A stretch of 64,000 nucleotides of DNA. Origin: an uncultured Selenomonadaceae bacterium. Its GTDB lineage: Bacteria > Bacillota > Negativicutes > Selenomonadales > Selenomonadaceae. Each line of letters begins with the position of its first letter. The stretch's first letter is position 1. A program made the position numbers and the translations under genes. This document shows positions 36,504 to 44,589 of this stretch, piece by piece. The stretch lies in assembly GCA_905234395.1 (NCBI GenBank), contig CAJOHG010000013.1, positions 5,253 to 69,252 on the forward strand. The letters are read 5' to 3'. Under the pieces are notes generated by a model. That model saw only the letters and a program-made list of their open reading frames with translations. It was not told the origin of the DNA and ran no database searches.

Positions 36504-36647
36504 AAAAAATGTTCTCCCTTCAAATTTTCATGTTCGCACGTCAATATACTGCAAAGCCGTTTGAAAGGCAAGCCGCCCGTAATTTTCGACAAGAAAAATT
36601 TTCCGAAGTTCAACGAATTGTCCGCTCAATCGCTTGTCAATTCCACG

Positions 36648-36676
36648 TTGTACAGTTGAAAATTCTCTGTTATAAT
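36648..36676 (+). promoter_or_regulatory. Unit 1 toxin promoter
   Basis: TTGTAC (36648-36653)-N17-TATAAT (36671-36676), with TGT immediately upstream of the -10. Confidence 0.6.
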
Positions 36677-36733: not shown

Positions 36734-36844
36734 ATGTTCAGTATCGTGACGATGCTGGCAGTAGGTGTGGTCTCGACCGCCGTCGGAACCGTTATCGGAA
36801 CCGTCGTTGGCGTCTACATCTGCAACCGCTGGCTCAAGAAGTAG
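36734..36844 (+). CDS. Type I toxin-like peptide, unit 1 (36 aa)
   Basis: GAGAGGAGGTGA precedes the ATG. The peptide is MFSIVTMLAVGVVSTAVGTVIGTVVGVYICNRWLKK, one TM helix plus a basic tail. Confidence 0.7.
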   Translation: MFSIVTMLAVGVVSTAVGTVIGTVVGVYICNRWLKK

Positions 36845-36895
36845 CAGGCGTATCCACTCCTGCGCCATTTGACTGAGTAGCGTTCAGTTATGGCA

Positions 36896-36992
36896 AACGA
36901 AAACTCCCTGGACGATGTAGCGTTTCGTTTCAGGGAGTTTTTCGTTTGGTGAAACATCATGTTCAGTATCTCGTGTGAATTTCTTAAGTAGC
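36896..36992 (-). ncRNA. Predicted antisense antitoxin RNA, unit 1
   Basis: Runs from the minus-strand promoter to the shared hairpin. It is transcribed across 36948-36970 (GGTGAaacatcATGTTCAGTATC), a same-strand copy of the unit 1 SD/start region (GGTGAgcattATGTTCAGTATC, 36724-36745). The ends are approximate. Confidence 0.5.
36900..36946. terminator. Shared bidirectional terminator, unit 1
   Basis: AAAACTCCCTG...CAGGGAGTTTTT, with A-rich and T-rich flanks on both sides. Confidence 0.65.
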
Positions 36993-36998
36993 GTTGAC

Positions 36999-37063
36999 AA
37001 TTTATCACAGAATCAATCGCTTGTCAATTCCGCGTTGCCCGGCTGAAAATTTCCTGCTATAAT
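36999..37063. promoter_or_regulatory. Back-to-back promoters: antisense RNA of unit 1 (-) and toxin of unit 2 (+)
   Basis: Minus strand: TTGACA (37027-37022)-N17-TAAATT (37004-36999). Plus strand: TTGCCC (37035-37040)-N17-TATAAT (37058-37063). Confidence 0.6.
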
Positions 37064-37122: not shown

Positions 37123-37215
37123 ATGCTGGAGAGCCTTTCGCAATTCGGCTGGGACGTTCTGGCGATCGTGGTCGGAGGTATGATCCTCGACTACATTATC
37201 AACAGACGTCGCTAA
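37123..37215 (+). CDS. Type I toxin-like peptide, unit 2 (30 aa, different family)
   Basis: GAGGAGGGAGGTGA precedes the ATG. The peptide is MLESLSQFGWDVLAIVVGGMILDYIINRRR, which looks Fst/Ldr-like. Confidence 0.65.
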   Translation: MLESLSQFGWDVLAIVVGGMILDYIINRRR

Positions 37216-37277
37216 GCGGCAGCAAACTCTAACCAGTTGCCCAAGATAATCGCATCACCCTGCGGTTAGGCAAAACG

Positions 37278-37380
37278 AAGCCCCCGTGCAGTTCACCCTT
37301 CTGCGCGGGGGTTTTTCGTTCGGTGATACTCATGCCGGAACTGCGAGCCTTTCATTTCACAGTTGTTGCCTTTTGTCAAC
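37278..37380 (-). ncRNA. Predicted antisense antitoxin RNA, unit 2
   Basis: Transcribed across 37322-37353 (GGTGAtactcATGCcGGAactgcGAGCCTTTC). The unit 2 mRNA reads GGTGAgatttATGCtGGAGAGCCTTTC. The ends are approximate. Confidence 0.45.
37281..37318. terminator. Shared bidirectional terminator, unit 2
   Basis: CCCCCGTGCAG...CTGCGCGGGGGTTTTT. Confidence 0.65.
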
Positions 37381-37386
37381 GCTGTA

Positions 37387-37451
37387 AATTTATCACAGAA
37401 TCAATCGCTTGTCAATTCCACGTTGTACAGTTGAAAATTCTCTGTTATAAT
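37387..37451. promoter_or_regulatory. Back-to-back promoters: antisense RNA of unit 2 (-) and toxin of unit 3 (+)
   Basis: Minus strand: TTGACA (37415-37410)-N17-TAAATT (37392-37387). Plus strand: TTGTAC (37423-37428)-N17-TATAAT (37446-37451). Confidence 0.6.
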
Positions 37452-37510: not shown

Positions 37511-37621
37511 ATGCTTAGCATTTGCACGATGCTGGCAGTAGGTGTGGTCTCGACCGCTATCGGTACCGCCATTGGAACCGTAATAGGCGTCTACATCTGC
37601 AACCGCTGGCTCAAGAAGTAG
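37511..37621 (+). CDS. Type I toxin-like peptide, unit 3 (36 aa)
   Basis: GAGAGGAGGTG precedes the ATG. The peptide is MLSICTMLAVGVVSTAIGTAIGTVIGVYICNRWLKK. Confidence 0.7.
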   Translation: MLSICTMLAVGVVSTAIGTAIGTVIGVYICNRWLKK

Positions 37622-37675
37622 CAGGCATATCGTCTCCTGCGCCCTCTAACTGAAGTCGCGTTTGGTTATGGCAAA

Positions 37676-37768
37676 CGAAAACTCCCTTGACGGCGTCGCG
37701 TTCCGTTTCAGGGAGTTTTTCGTTTGGTGTCAACATGCTTAGCATTTCATGTGTATTTCTTAAGTAGC
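37676..37768 (-). ncRNA. Predicted antisense antitoxin RNA, unit 3
   Basis: Transcribed across 37726-37747 (GGTGTCAAcATGCTTAGCATTT). The unit 3 mRNA reads GGTGTCAAttATGCTTAGCATTT. The ends are approximate. Confidence 0.5.
37677..37725. terminator. Shared bidirectional terminator, unit 3
   Basis: AAAACTCCCTTG...CAGGGAGTTTTT. Confidence 0.65.
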
Positions 37769-37774
37769 GTTGAC

Positions 37775-37839
37775 AATTTATCACAGAATCAATCGCTTGT
37801 CAATTCCACGTTGCCCGGCTGAAAATTTCCTGTTATAAT
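37775..37839. promoter_or_regulatory. Back-to-back promoters: antisense RNA of unit 3 (-) and toxin of unit 4 (+)
   Basis: Minus strand: TTGACA (37803-37798)-N17-TAAATT (37780-37775). Plus strand: TTGCCC (37811-37816)-N17-TATAAT (37834-37839). Confidence 0.6.
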
Positions 37840-37901: not shown

Positions 37902-38012
37902 ATGATCAGTATTCTGGTCACGCTGGCAGTGGGTGTGGTCTCGACCGCTATCGGTACCGCCATTGGAACCGTAATCGGCGTCTACATCTGCAATCGTCGA
38001 CAAAAGAAGTAG
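37902..38012 (+). CDS. Type I toxin-like peptide, unit 4 (36 aa)
   Basis: GAGAGGAGGTGA precedes the ATG. The peptide is MISILVTLAVGVVSTAIGTAIGTVIGVYICNRRQKK. The track ORF 37847..38044 is in another frame and is rejected. Confidence 0.7.
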   Translation: MISILVTLAVGVVSTAIGTAIGTVIGVYICNRRQKK

Positions 38013-38064
38013 CAGGCGTATCCACTCTTTCGCCCTCTAACTGAAGTCACGTTTGGTTATGGCA

Positions 38065-38163
38065 AACGAAAACTCCCTTGACGGCGTCACGTTCCGTTTC
38101 AGGGAGTTTTTCGTTTGTGAGCCAATGATCAGCATTCTCACGAATATCTTCTAAATTCTGGTC
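38065..38163 (-). ncRNA. Predicted antisense antitoxin RNA, unit 4
   Basis: Transcribed across 38118-38138 (TGAGCcAATGATCAGcATTCT). The unit 4 mRNA reads TGAGCacAATGATCAGtATTCT. The ends are approximate. Confidence 0.5.
38066..38115. terminator. Shared bidirectional terminator, unit 4
   Basis: AAAACTCCCTTG...CAGGGAGTTTTT. Confidence 0.65.
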
Positions 38164-38169
38164 GCGGCT

Positions 38170-38198
38170 AATCTATCACACAATCAATCGCTTGTCAA
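38170..38198 (-). promoter_or_regulatory. Antisense RNA promoter of unit 4; its -35 lies inside the last codons of the R-M gene
   Basis: TTGACA (38198-38193, codons L-T of ...VELTSD*)-N17-TAGATT (38175-38170). Confidence 0.55.
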
Positions 38199-40990
38199 TT
38201 CCACGTAGCGATTCATCAGCTCGCCGACAATTTTTGCCTCGTCGTCCAAAATGTTTTCAAAGCCGTAAGCCAAAGCAACTGCCTTGTCATTTTCGCGATG
38301 AGCTTTTCTCAAATCGGCGGGCATTGTCAATTCGTCGTACAAATCGGCAAGCGTAGAGTCGGGATAATTTTTTCGCGCGTCCAAAATTTTTTGCGCAGTC
38401 GTTTCAATCGCTCGACGCCGGTTATCTGTCGGCTCGCACCACGGAAAATTATTATAAACCACGTTGCTTGAATAGCGATAACTCGTTCCAAGGTAGCCGC
38501 AGACCGTTCGCATCCAAGCCATATGAATTGACGACGTTAAAATTCCAAAGTGATACAGCGTCGCGTTCGGGATAATCAAATTTGCATTGCTCGCGATAAT
38601 ATCAGGTGATACAAATCCCATTGGAATATATTTTCGTCCGCCCGATGAATGACACGGAATTAAAATGTATTCAGTTGTCGGTTGTGATATGAAGAAAAAT
38701 TTATGCGGCGTCTCTGCAGTCTTTCTAGTTGCAGCTGAAGTGCTAGCCTCGCGCATTTTTCTGACGGCATCAACTCGCCGATAAAGTTCTTTGCTTTTGC
38801 GAAGTTCCTTAGGCGTCGCGTTGACAAGCCATAAGCAATAACGTTCGATGTTGTTGATGAATTCGTTGCCGCCGACGTAACGGAAGATAAATTTTTCAAG
38901 TGCAGGCTCGCGTTGAAGAATCTCTTTGCGTTCGGCAGGCGACAGAATCAAATTTCCGCCGTCACTCGGTTTGTTGCCTAAAATAATTCGCGGCACGAAG
39001 TCTTGAAGATGTTTTGCACGGCTCTCGATAAAAATTGTCGGCGCGTCGCACAGGTAAGGATTGATATTTTTCGCGCTGATGATTTCGTCGCCGTCAAAGA
39101 TTTTCTTTTCGACGGGCAAAGACTTATCGGCAATGCAGATAACGACGCAATGAACGCTTGCCTTGTCGAGAGATTCGCTGTCCCATTTGAAAGTTCGGCG
39201 TGCGAAAATGATTTGCATGTTGTATTCGTCGAAAACCTTTTTCCAAAGCGGAGCGAGCTGTTCGCCCTGCGTGATAGAGTTCGTGCTTACAAAGGCGGCT
39301 TTGATGTTGGTGCCGGTCATGAATTTTGCGGCGAGATGATACCACGCGCCAACGTAGTCGACGCTGTTAGAGAGTTTGACTTTGCCGAAAATCTTGACGG
39401 CTTCGGCTTTCTGCGCGGCGTTCATCATGCTTGCACCGACGAAAGGCGGATTTCCGATGATGTAATTCGGTTGCGGACAAATTTTTTGCCAGTCGATTTT
39501 CAAAGCGTTGCCTTCGTGAATGTTTGAATAACTTTTCAGCGGCAGAAAGTCTAAGTCGCGGTGAATAATCTCTCGCGTGTCCTGCATCATTTGCAATTCA
39601 GCGATCCACAATGCAGTTTGCGCGACGGCTACAGCAAAGTCGTTGATTTCGATGCCGTAAAATTGTCCGATTGAAACTTTTATCGGGTTGACGAGTTCGC
39701 CGAGCTGAATTTGACTGCCGAGCAATTCCTTGAGCAATTCGTTTTCAAGTCGACGCAACGACAGATAACTTTCCGTCAAAAAATTCCCGGAGCCGCACGC
39801 AGGATCGAAAATTTTCAACGACGCAAGCTTATCTTGGAACGCGAGCAAATTTTTCTTGCGGTTACGTGACGGAATTTTGGCGATGTCAAATTCGGCTTTA
39901 AGTTCGTCCAAAAATAACGGGTCGATGACTTTGTGGATGTTTTCAATCGCCGTGTAGTGCATGCCGCCGGCGCGTCGAGTTTCGGGATTCAACGTCGATT
40001 CAAACACTGCGCCGAATATCGTCGGACTGATTCCGCTCCAGTTGAAACCGCTTGACGCTTCTTCAAACAACAGCTCGCGAATTTTGGGCGTGAAGTTCGG
40101 AATTTCGATTGAGCCGCTGAAAAGTCCGCCGTTGACGTAAGGAAATTTTTTCAACGTGTCGTCAAGATACGGGTCGCGCTCATCAATCGGAGTGTTCAGC
40201 ACGTCAAACAGATGAATCAAATCCCAACGAATATTTCTTGCCAGTCGCGGAAAATTTTGTGCTTGCCGAAAATGCCCGATGACTCGGCGTAAAGACAAAA
40301 GACCAATCGGACGCAGAGCTTGTTGAGACTGGCTTGACTTTCCGCAGAATTCGGATTGACGTATTGCGCGAGCAAAGCGTTGTAAAGTTTGCCGACGATT
40401 TCGCCCGCCTTCAAGCTCAATTCCAACTCAATGCGAATCTTGTTGCGTTCCTTGTCAATCAGAAAATCCAGCGCGTGAAATTTTTCGGGCAACTCTTCGA
40501 GCAAAATTTTAATCGGCGGCTTCAAAGTTTCCATGTCGTAAATCAGAAACTCTTTGAAATTGCACGTGATGATTTTTTTCGGGTGCATTGAGACCGGCAA
40601 GCCGATAACATACCGCCGCGCCTGTTCGTAAGGTGTGAGCTTCGTTCCGTCCGATTGCGTGATTTCCTTTTCCAAATCGACGCCGCAAGCTTTCTGCTCA
40701 ATCAAAACGTTTGTGTCGGGAAAATAGCCGTCGATAAAACTTTTGTGCGCGAGCTGAACTGGCACTTCAAAGTTTATAAAATTTTCGGGCTTGTCGATGT
40801 CGAAAACGTCACGAATCAGCGTGAGCCAAAATTTTTGATAATCAGCACGTTCATTGGCGACAACGTTTGAGCGCGGCTTATCGGTTGAAATTTTTTGAAA
40901 CTCCGTCGCGTCCGCTGTTCCGTCGCTTTTAAAGCGACCACGTTCGCCGTTGACTTCGCGCCACTGCTTGACAAAATTTTTTACGTTCAA
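38184..40990 (-). pseudogene. MmeI-family type IIL/IIG restriction-modification fusion enzyme, split by one frameshift
   Basis: Track ORFs 40217..40990 and 38184..40298 overlap by 82 nt in different frames. The first carries the nuclease FIDGYFPDTNVLIEQK and the helical LVFCLYAESSGIF. The second carries LFDVLNTP, FPYVNGGLF, FDPACGSGNFL, GNPPFVG, the TRD and HMAWMRTVCG...YNNFPW. Together they total about 940 aa, similar to MmeI. The start is TTG after GGAAGGAGG. Confidence 0.85.
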
Positions 40991-43374: not shown

Positions 43375-43419
43375 TACAAAAAAATTTTTCCCCGCCAAAT
43401 TTCTGACGGGGATTTTTTT
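43375..43419. terminator. Bidirectional terminator between the cassette and the MmeI remnant
   Basis: A-run, then CCCCG...CGGGG, then a T-run. Confidence 0.65.
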
Positions 43420-44589
43420 ATTTGCTCGCGTGTTGTTCGTAGAGTTTGAGCAACTTTACGGCTAAAGTCGGCTCGTCGTCCAAAAATTTTTCCCAACCGT
43501 AAGCTTTTGCCACTGCCAAATCGTTTTCGCGATGAGCTTTTCTCAATTCATACGGCATGGAAACTTCATCATACAAAGCGGCAAGCGTCGACTTCGGATA
43601 ATTTTTTCGTGCATCCAAAATATTCTGCGCGAACTGCTCGACAGCAAGGCGTTGCGTTTCTGTCGGCTCAATCCACACAAAATTATTGTACACCACGTCT
43701 TTTGAGTAGAGATAATCACTTTTCAAACGACCGCCGACCGTTCTAAGCCACGCCATGTGTATTGAACTCGTCAAAATTTTAAAATGATACAATGTAAAGT
43801 TGGGAATTTCAATCTTTCCGCTGAAAAGTCCGCCGTTGACGTATGGAAATTTTTTCAACGTGTCGTCAAGATACGGGTCGCGCTCATCAATCGGAGTGTT
43901 CAGCACGTCAAACAGATGAATCAAATCCCAACGAATATTTCTTGTGCTTGCCGAAAAAGATGCCCGAAGACTCGGCGTAAAGACAAAAGACCAATCGGAC
44001 GCAGAGCTTGTTGAGACTGGCTTGACTTTCCGCAGAATTCGGATTGACGTATTGGGCGAGCAAGGCGTTGTAAAGTTTGCCGACGATTTCGCCTGCTTTA
44101 AGCGAAAGTTCAACTTCAATGCGGAGCTTGTTGCGTTCCTTGTCAATCAGAAAATCCAGCGCGTGAAATTTTTCCGGGCAACTCTTCGAGCAAAATTTTC
44201 GTCGGTGCCGCGAGCGTTTCCATATCGTAAATCAGAAACTCTTTGAAATTGCACGTGACGATTTTTTTCGGGTGCATGGAGACCGGCAAGCCGATAACAT
44301 ATCGTCGCGCCTGTTCATAAGGTGTGAGCTTCGAGCCGTCGGACTGCGTGATTTCCTTTTCCAAATCGACACCGCAAGCTTTCTGCTCAATCAAAACGTT
44401 TGTGTCGGGAAAATAGCCGTCGATAAAACTTTTGTGCGCGAGCTGAACGGGCACTTCAAAGTTTATAAAATTTTCGGGCTTGTCGATGTCGAACACGTCG
44501 CGAATCAACGTGAGCCAAAATTTTTGATAGTTTGCGCGTTCGCCGCTGACGTGTGCCCATTGCTTGACAAAATTTTTTATGTCGCTCAT
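43418..44589 (-). pseudogene. Degenerate second copy of the MmeI-family gene (nuclease domain plus extreme C-terminus; methyltransferase and TRD deleted)
   Basis: The N-terminal ~150 codons are near-identical to copy 1 but carry a 1-nt insertion (TTTTTCCGGGC vs TTTTTCGGGC) and a 19-nt deletion relative to copy 1. IEIPNFT is joined directly to LYHFKILTSSIHMAWLRTVGG at about 43792/43793. Confidence 0.85.

Follow-up and report, generated by a model that had tools for sequence, protein, structure and literature searches.

The array and the restriction-modification gene

We analysed a stretch of 64,000 nucleotides (hereafter the window) from an uncultured Selenomonadaceae bacterium (assembly GCA_905234395.1, contig CAJOHG010000013.1, positions 5,253 to 69,252), which belongs to a Quinella-like genus of rumen Selenomonadaceae. 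Between the secD promoter and a gene of the MmeI family of Type IIL restriction-modification (R-M) enzymes, the window holds four tandem units of about 388 bp each, which we interpret as putative type I toxin-antitoxin (TA) cassettes. The units are delimited by a 23-mer, TCAATCGCTTGTCAATTCCACGT, found in five copies, all on the plus strand, at positions 36626, 37013 (with one mismatch, A to G), 37401, 37789 and 38184, so that n units carry n+1 repeats. No 23-mer match appeared in 100 shuffles, the chance expectation being 0, and the 2.83-Mb genome holds no copy besides these five. Read in reverse complement, the last copy (38184-38206) gives the codons Y V E L T S D plus the stop that close the open reading frame (ORF) at 38184-40298 on the minus strand, as the first-pass annotation of this DNA had claimed. 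The same annotation extended the homology past the stop into ATCACA[G/C]AA; the internal junctions do resemble the gene end in this way, and the likeness runs on to a -10 hexamer (TAAATT or TAGATT).

The R-M gene (38184-40990, minus strand) is split into two ORFs, 40217-40990 and 38184-40298, by a frameshift at about 40241-40331, as judged against an intact 928-aa homologue; its reading frame is not intact as assembled, and the shift may be an assembly error. The 704-aa ORF at 38184-40298 carries the Pfam domains MmeI_Mtase, MmeI_TRD and MmeI_C, and the two ORFs jointly hold the full MmeI set of MmeI_N, helical spacer, gamma-class methyltransferase (MTase), target recognition domain (TRD) and C-terminal domain. 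The protein matches MmeI (PDB 5HR4) with E=1.2e-173. At its end, the MmeI_C profile is matched up to position 80 of 83, and ...LMNRYVELT aligns with ...LFETYQKMT of MmeI. As MmeI itself has YQKMT at the same place, Y-x-x-L/M-T is native to the family, and the predicted -35 hexamer TTGACA, which had been proposed to be made of R-M coding sequence, is the conserved Leu-Thr pair of the MmeI-family tail.

On the R-M strand, a junction comprises this -35 and the first nine spacer bases of the predicted antitoxin promoter, and stands back to back with the -35 of the toxin promoter in the unit that follows. The stop codon of the R-M gene falls within the promoter spacer and the -10 comes after it. 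At the gene itself, the seven final codons with their stop lie over the predicted antitoxin 4 promoter (copy 5 with its -10, 38170-38206, minus strand), whose -35 at 38198-38193 corresponds to L-T and whose -10, TAGATT, is at 38175-38170. The gene lacks its own terminator; the first to be met downstream is the two-way terminator of unit 4 (38052-38120), where the match to our terminator model starts 66 nt past the stop, and because this terminator belongs to the cassette, any R-M transcript would carry the sequence of antitoxin 4 at its end, as its 3' untranslated region (UTR). With a predicted promoter inside the upstream ORF and a terminator common to the ORF's mRNA, antitoxin RNA 4 would have the layout of a 3' UTR small RNA (sRNA) whose promoter is embedded in coding sequence.

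Starting from the end farthest from the R-M gene, copy 1 of the 23-mer (36626-36648) is a truncated junction that keeps TTGACA and a fossil stop, has no -10 beyond, and abuts the predicted toxin 1 promoter (36648-36676, plus strand; type A, TTGTAC-N17-TATAAT with a TG extension). The toxin 1 ORF (36734-36844, plus strand) encodes a 36-aa peptide of family X, MFSIVTMLAVGVVSTAVGTVIGTVVGVYICNRWLKK, with a hairpin in its 5' UTR over part of the Shine-Dalgarno (SD) sequence. The two-way terminator of unit 1 (36890-36955) folds on both strands (-29.8 and -25.9 kcal/mol), with U-runs behind it. On the minus strand, antitoxin RNA 1 (predicted ends 36895-36992) would be complementary through its 5' part to toxin 1 from the SD to codon 8, with an own-toxin duplex of -40.6 kcal/mol. 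Its promoter has the -35 at 37027-37022, inside the mismatched copy 2 (37013-37035), and the -10 at 37004-36999. Unit 2 continues with a type B toxin promoter (37035-37063, plus strand; TTGCCC-N17-TATAAT), a 30-aa toxin ORF of family Y (37123-37215, plus strand), MLESLSQFGWDVLAIVVGGMILDYIINRRR, a two-way terminator at 37262-37330 and antitoxin RNA 2 (predicted ends 37270-37380, minus strand; own-toxin duplex -43.3 kcal/mol), the promoter of which has its -35 at 37415-37410, inside copy 3 (37401-37423), and its -10 at 37392-37387. Unit 3 again has a type A promoter (37423-37451, plus strand) and a 36-aa family X ORF (37511-37621, plus strand), then a two-way terminator (37664-37732) and antitoxin RNA 3 (predicted ends 37672-37768, minus strand; own-toxin duplex -37.0 kcal/mol), served by copy 4 (37789-37811; -35 at 37803-37798, -10 at 37780-37775). 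In unit 4, a type B promoter (37811-37839, plus strand) is joined to an X-type toxin of 36 aa (37902-38012, plus strand), making this a recombinant unit; its antitoxin RNA 4 has predicted ends 38060-38163 on the minus strand and an own-toxin duplex of -42.0 kcal/mol.

The order of promoter types (A-B-A-B) and of toxin families (X-Y-X-X) had been noted before, and had been taken to indicate recombination among units. Both points hold up in windowed identity. Units 1 and 3 are 100% identical in columns 1-60, which cover junction and promoter, units 2 and 4 are 93-96% identical in the same columns, and units 3 and 4 are 100% identical within the ORF and the 3' UTR, while the unit 2 toxin is unrelated to those of the other units. 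The units are mosaic, and recombination among them is confirmed.

By their predicted architecture, the units are type I TA cassettes of the par/Fst kind. Promoters were called by a sigma-70-like consensus scan with no transcript input, which returned 14 promoter-like sites against 2.1 expected. The four minus-strand promoters read TTGACA-N17-TA[A/G]ATT with a TG extension and have their -35 within copies 2-5 of the 23-mer; the four toxin promoters on the plus strand read TTGTAC or TTGCCC, N17, TATAAT, likewise with a TG extension. Each of the four plus-strand and four minus-strand promoters matches 10 of the 12 consensus positions, and the arrangement is convergent. Across the units, the terminator stem-loops fold on both strands at -25 to -34 kcal/mol with U-runs, and the terminator module is conserved with covariation in its stem (CTCCCTG/CAGGGAG vs CCCCCG/CGGGGG). 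Hairpins in the toxin leaders pair into the SD, as CUCUCG...CGAGAG in units 1, 3 and 4 and as CCUCA...UGAGG in unit 2. Behind a strong SD, the ORFs of 30 or 36 codons encode a hydrophobic peptide with a basic tail. The stretch from antitoxin promoter to terminator copies the unit's own SD/start-codon region and changes together with that region, unit by unit. In a 4x4 duplex matrix, own toxin-antitoxin pairs reached -37 to -43 kcal/mol over a span from the SD to about codon 8, and non-own pairs -17 to -31 kcal/mol. The cassettes would add at least two new type I toxin families, together with a covariance model that detects such units.

Two further sets of MmeI sequences were seen in this genome. 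A second MmeI remnant in the window (43418-44146, minus strand) ends ...LLKLYEQHASK before its stop, has its own terminator-like hairpin, and carries neither an L-T/TTGACA tail nor a cassette. Positions ~1-708 of the window (C13:5049-5960 in our numbering of the genome) and regions of C16, C35 and C38 match only the TRD and C-terminal part of MmeI.

Recurrence and history of the junction

Related loci were found with a terminator covariance model (R1) built from the cassettes. The model matches 52 of the 76 genomes of the genus, with up to 14 matches per genome, and MmeI paralogues are similarly numerous in the genus (up to 13 matching stretches per genome). In 18 of the 30 best-scoring loci, one per genome, an MmeI C-terminus immediately precedes the cassette on the antitoxin strand, and L043 makes a nineteenth with a short relic of an MmeI C-terminus. 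We also carried out a full census of 12 genomes of the genus, counting an MmeI_C match as full-length when it lay in an open frame of at least 600 aa. In these genomes, 28 of 62 arrays (63 of 111 units) lie directly downstream of an MmeI_C end, the number of adjacent arrays expected by chance being about 0.03 by our estimate, and 23 of the 35 MmeI_C matches in frames of at least 600 aa have an array at their 3' end. Most cassette-bearing MmeI genes are intact ORFs of about 890-940 aa. The fusion seen in the window recurs in other species and with other MmeI paralogues, and in a tree of 38 MmeI C-terminal bodies the presence of a cassette requires at least eight changes, six of them forced by well-supported branches. 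Where titles were visible, true model matches came from Selenomonadaceae, Selenomonadales and Quinella metagenome-assembled genomes (MAGs) and from one Eubacteriales-labelled MAG; a pattern scan of genome contigs returned mostly chance 17-mers.

The geometry of the junction is also recurrent. Among 19 distinct cassette-bearing MmeI ends, 15 encode L-T as TTGAC(A/G) and continue with ...GTG(A/G)TA(A/G)ATT, the stop falling in the spacer ahead of the -10, and in 16 the first terminator match starts 41-94 nt past the stop. The cassette-bearing paralogues almost always have TTGACA and stereotyped tails, L-T-K/S/N-x-stop. In cassette-free paralogues the L-T codons vary (TTAACA, CTTACT, TTGACG or TTTACA, the last encoding Phe-Thr) and the tails are diverse and often longer. 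Some variants deserve mention. MmeI_C matches in frames shorter than 600 aa make up 28 of the 63 in the 12 relatives, most of about 320 aa; cassettes are rare on them (5 of 28), and those five resemble fragments of full-length genes. At L047 (G110), the spacer stop has been lost and the MmeI ORF passes through the antitoxin promoter (...LTKSYGCDRF) to end in a TAG after the -10. At L029 (G038:C2), a different convergent small-peptide module (MCMRKIDWINLVISTAGLIASVIGLFN) occupies the 0-330 nt past the MmeI stop, and the L-T codons of the gene are TTGACT, followed by N17-TATAAT; on this ground, the promoter-in-tail design may exceed one cassette family.

The same cassette family is found at six other loci of the own genome with no MmeI gene nearby, and the cassettes outside the window lie at C1:13910-13971, C1:38938-39003, C10:19017-19080, C14:8550-8761, C27:788-847, C31:30693-30886 and C108:4451-4512. 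Their promoters retain TTGACA and often the in-frame TGA, the antitoxin promoters of stand-alone cassettes in this and other genomes reading TTGACAAAnnnnTGAGCGTGTGATAAATT. The eight gene-specific bases ACGTGGAA are missing from them, which argues that the match of the 23-mer to the gene end is not a coincidence. The first-pass annotation would have given up that match had relatives carried the same 23-mer and array without an MmeI gene; the 23-mer, allowing up to three mismatches, was not found in 100 relatives, nor was the exact 23-mer (with one R position) found in JGI metagenomes. The link between gene end and cassette is thus supported as real. Thirteen nucleotides of the 23-mer, TCAATCGCTTGTC, also form the upstream and -35 part of stand-alone toxin promoters (exactly in C10, with one mismatch in C108), and because of this recurrence part of the 23-mer is generic junction sequence. 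Some stand-alone cassettes are incomplete: in C14 and C31, an antitoxin-only first unit (orphan promoter plus terminator) stands ahead of a complete one, and in C27 the 5' part of the toxin and the SD seem to be deleted with the antitoxin retained.

Comparison between loci shows how the junctions have been kept alike. The internal junctions in the window repeat ACGTGGAA, which is the end of the own gene's Tyr codon plus the Val-Glu codons, and the L055 and L013 arrays repeat ACGAATCA, the Tyr-Glu-Ser of their own genes. As the breakpoint is the same and six bases differ between the loci, junction copies and gene end evolve in concert. The junction belongs to the locus and not to the cargo: one unit in L020 is a homologue of the unit 2 Y cargo, with a near-identical toxin, but its junction reads TTGACAAGGCGGCGGGCG... 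and contains no gene codons. An insertion event is documented by L017 and L021. At L017, a single 363-nt cassette sits exactly at the L-T codons, the orthologous site in L021 is empty, and identity in the flanks is 88-95%; N-L-D-stop gave way to a new tail, K-N-stop, that came with the cassette, and the relic of the old gene end, TTGACTAATCTTGACTGA, was left distal to it. In L025 and L060, the gene bodies are 67% identical and the last 60 nt 97%. Taken together, the copying of each locus's own codons and the L017/L021 insertion indicate that both unequal recombination and capture of gene ends occur, the two histories between which the first-pass annotation had left the choice. A relic was also seen at L008 (G049:C150), 25-43 nt past the stop of a close MmeI homologue whose present tail is different: TGACAAGCGATTGAGTGG agrees with the array's distal junction in the window, TTGACAAGCGATTGAGCGG, at 17 of 18 bases, and this match suggests that the L008 gene end was replaced in the past.

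A comparison of orthologous secD to meaB intervals had been proposed as a check on unit number and on the presence of the R-M gene. It was run and gave no orthologous array to compare, since similarity within the genus stops near 36590, just past the conserved secD promoter, and in each of 29 genomes of the genus the 1.5 kb upstream of secD holds neither a cassette nor an MmeI gene. Judged from these sequences, the island is specific to the own genome among the species representatives. The secD promoter itself (TTGCCT-N17-TATATT, window 36543-36571, minus strand) is kept across the genus, and everything upstream of it (36572-36625) differs between species, which marks this site as a hot spot for insertion or recombination. 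Short tandem runs of heptamers (TAATTCC, CTAGGGA, TAGTGGT and similar) occur in several species of the genus where a cassette or island begins or ends, and also in the hypervariable stretch ahead of secD, namely at L013 about 370-400 nt past the MmeI stop, upstream of secD at L068, L069, L078, L079 and L084, and in the own C35 at about 36750.

Explanations considered

The explanation that we favour, and hold to be probable, is that the 23-mer is the junction module of four tandem par/Fst-type cassettes, which belong to a recurrent design on R-M gene tails, were built by recombination, and behave as addiction-type hitchhikers. The arrays would be assembled and kept uniform as junction copies, the one within the gene among them, recombine homologously by unequal crossing-over and gene conversion. 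New MmeI genes would gain cassettes when recombination takes place at the L-T/TTGACA site and within the conserved 3' part of the coding sequence, the gene tail serving as a landing pad. Deletion of the R-M 3' end would take the adjacent antitoxin promoter and leave the toxin gene, so that the toxin would be unleashed; in this way the cassette would anchor a single-polypeptide R-M gene. We assume that cells survive the mere loss of such a gene, which is why a TA anchor could matter.

Several points weigh against this explanation. The R-M gene in the window is frameshifted, so the array does not preserve an intact gene here, and 34 of the 62 census arrays do not adjoin MmeI genes, from which it follows that cassettes work without them. 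Transcription, start sites, read-through and antitoxin expression are predictions, and the toxicity of the peptides is presumed. Eight of the toxins gave nothing above noise against Pfam and NCBIfam. As the genome is a MAG, the repeat copy number could be an assembly artefact. The direction in which the segment from TTGACA onward moved, from gene to cassette or the reverse, is not settled, given TCAATCGCTTGTC in C10 and C108, and no single insertion mechanism is proven, since the distal ends vary between loci.

The question of direction leads to the alternative that the cassette owns the junction, the 23-mer from TTGACA onward being cassette promoter DNA and the native R-M C-terminus having been overwritten by recombination of the array. 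That stand-alone antitoxin promoters of the form TTGACAAAnnnnTGAGCGTGTGATAAATT keep the in-frame TGA with no gene upstream fits this account well, as do the presence of TCAATCGCTTGTC in the C10 and C108 toxin promoters, the stereotyped tails of cassette-bearing genes next to the diverse, often longer tails of cassette-free ones, and the new tail that the cassette supplied at L017. But L-T stands exactly in register with the family-wide Y-x-x-L/M-T, so that at least TTGACA corresponds to native codons, and the eight bases upstream of it (ACGTGGAA here, ACGAATCA at other loci) fit each locus's own gene and are missing from stand-alone cassettes. We regard this alternative as unlikely; it overlaps with the explanation we favour and does not exclude it. 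We see far less chance that the units are not TA cassettes at all, and that a repeated terminator/promoter element with chance small ORFs had its match to the gene end as a by-product of duplication. Expression of the units is a prediction, and no curated toxin or Rfam family was matched: an Rfam scan of 30-46 kb found no antitoxin family, with two sub-threshold matches elsewhere in that region, and among toxin families the closest was CD_typeI_toxin, matched by the toxin of one relative at E=0.11, so that membership of Fst/Ldr is not borne out at the sequence level. However, the segment after the terminator covaries with the unit's own SD/start-codon region in the four units and in relatives, the ORFs with their strong SD, hydrophobic helix and basic tail are conserved across species, and every architectural feature of par is present (PMC7472228).

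An equally improbable account would make the units mobile, integron-like or IMEX-like, with a site-specific recombinase that uses a 23-bp stretch of the MmeI gene end as the attachment site for their insertion. The n+1 repeats for n units would be expected from such a mechanism, and single cassettes are flanked by direct repeats on both sides (ACGAATCATTGACAAAA at L013, AAGCGATTGAC at C10). Against it, no recombinase domain was found in the larger ORFs (at least 139 aa) between secD and the second MmeI remnant, no attC-like inverted repeat was found, the length and sequence of the repeat vary between loci, and viral contigs gave six pattern matches, none of them a true cassette by the model. 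The distal boundaries also fall at differing junction points, since arrays end in a full promoter copy, in a truncated junction (cut after TGA in the window) or in none; such varied ends, like the flanking repeats, are better and more simply explained as truncated (n+1)th junctions than by a site-specific recombinase. Site-specific integration as the main mechanism was rejected on the varying distal endpoints and the lack of a recombinase.

Relation to known systems and implications

Promoters in the end of an upstream ORF are known from the sRNAs MicL in cutC and DapZ in dapB, which share the terminator of the mRNA, so that the read-through mRNA carries the sRNA sequence. The predicted layout here is the same in placing the promoter in the upstream ORF end and in having a terminator common to sRNA and mRNA; it differs in that MicL and DapZ act in trans on unrelated targets, whereas here the RNA would be the antitoxin of a convergent toxin and is tandemly repeated. 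Tandem toxin/antisense units in which each antisense RNA is specific to its own toxin are familiar from ldr/rdl, ibs/sib and zor/orz of Escherichia coli. The units described here share both the tandem order and the own-toxin specificity, but the layout of the E. coli systems is unlike the convergent design with a shared terminator, and we know of no fusion of ldr/rdl, ibs/sib or zor/orz to the coding end of a neighbouring gene.

The closest design is that of par (Fst/RNA II) of Enterococcus faecalis pAD1, with its convergent promoters, direct repeats in the start region, two-way terminator and 5' stem-loop over the SD (PMC7472228). Like par/Fst/Ldr systems, the cassettes have convergent promoters, a small hydrophobic toxin with a charged tail, a terminator common to both RNAs, a direct repeat through which the antitoxin 5' end is complementary to the toxin translation start, and a 5' stem-loop covering the SD (PMC7472228). 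In contrast to these systems, the toxins fit no curated model, whether of Fst/Ldr or of another family, the units are arrayed with back-to-back promoter junctions, and an antitoxin promoter is predicted within the last codons of a neighbouring R-M gene. The type I TA systems of Clostridioides difficile lie inside prophages or beside CRISPR arrays, with several paralogues per genome, and a role in keeping neighbouring DNA has been proposed for them (PMC5961336; PMC7699646). In both cases, type I toxin/antisense pairs with multiple paralogues are tied physically to a defence locus, but there the tie is one of proximity, whereas here the promoter would overlap the coding end of a Type IIL R-M gene and the terminator would be common. 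Those type I TA systems beside C. difficile CRISPR arrays are the nearest published parallel (PMC5961336). As for the R-M side, MmeI-family Type IIL enzymes carry out both cleavage and methylation with a single polypeptide (PMC2582602, PMC2731913), and the order of domains here (N, helical spacer, MTase, TRD, C) is that of the family (PMC2582602, PMC2731913, PMC4833311); the gene in the window differs from these in being frameshifted and in having its tail cut to two residues after L-T, overlapping the promoter.

In the full-text literature we found nothing that links MmeI-type or other R-M genes to type I TA promoters in coding ends. What appears to be new is a par-like type I TA system with new toxin families, in which the units are arrayed by means of a junction module, itself fused to a restriction gene at its 3' end. 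Both kinds of system, type I TA and R-M, are regarded as selfish or defensive modules, and a direct structural fusion of the two was not found in the literature searched. Such a fusion would be a case of natural dual coding, with a protein tail and a -35 box under joint selection. It would also offer a recombination route for shuffling small toxin cargo, in which the conserved gene tail, or the junction module derived from it, acts as portable homology, and it provides a testable model for the retention of single-polypeptide R-M genes in defence islands.

More tentatively, and with a modest chance of being right, the cassettes could be a specialised lineage of type I TA systems that lives on MmeI-family genes: with the antitoxin promoter made from the conserved Leu-Thr tail and the terminator of the gene provided by the cassette, they would make deletion of the 3' end lethal and tie the supply of antitoxin to R-M transcription. 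If this were true, Type IIL enzymes would gain the post-segregational 'addiction' that they are assumed to lack, and the gene tail would be a homologous landing pad by which the cassettes spread among many MmeI paralogues.

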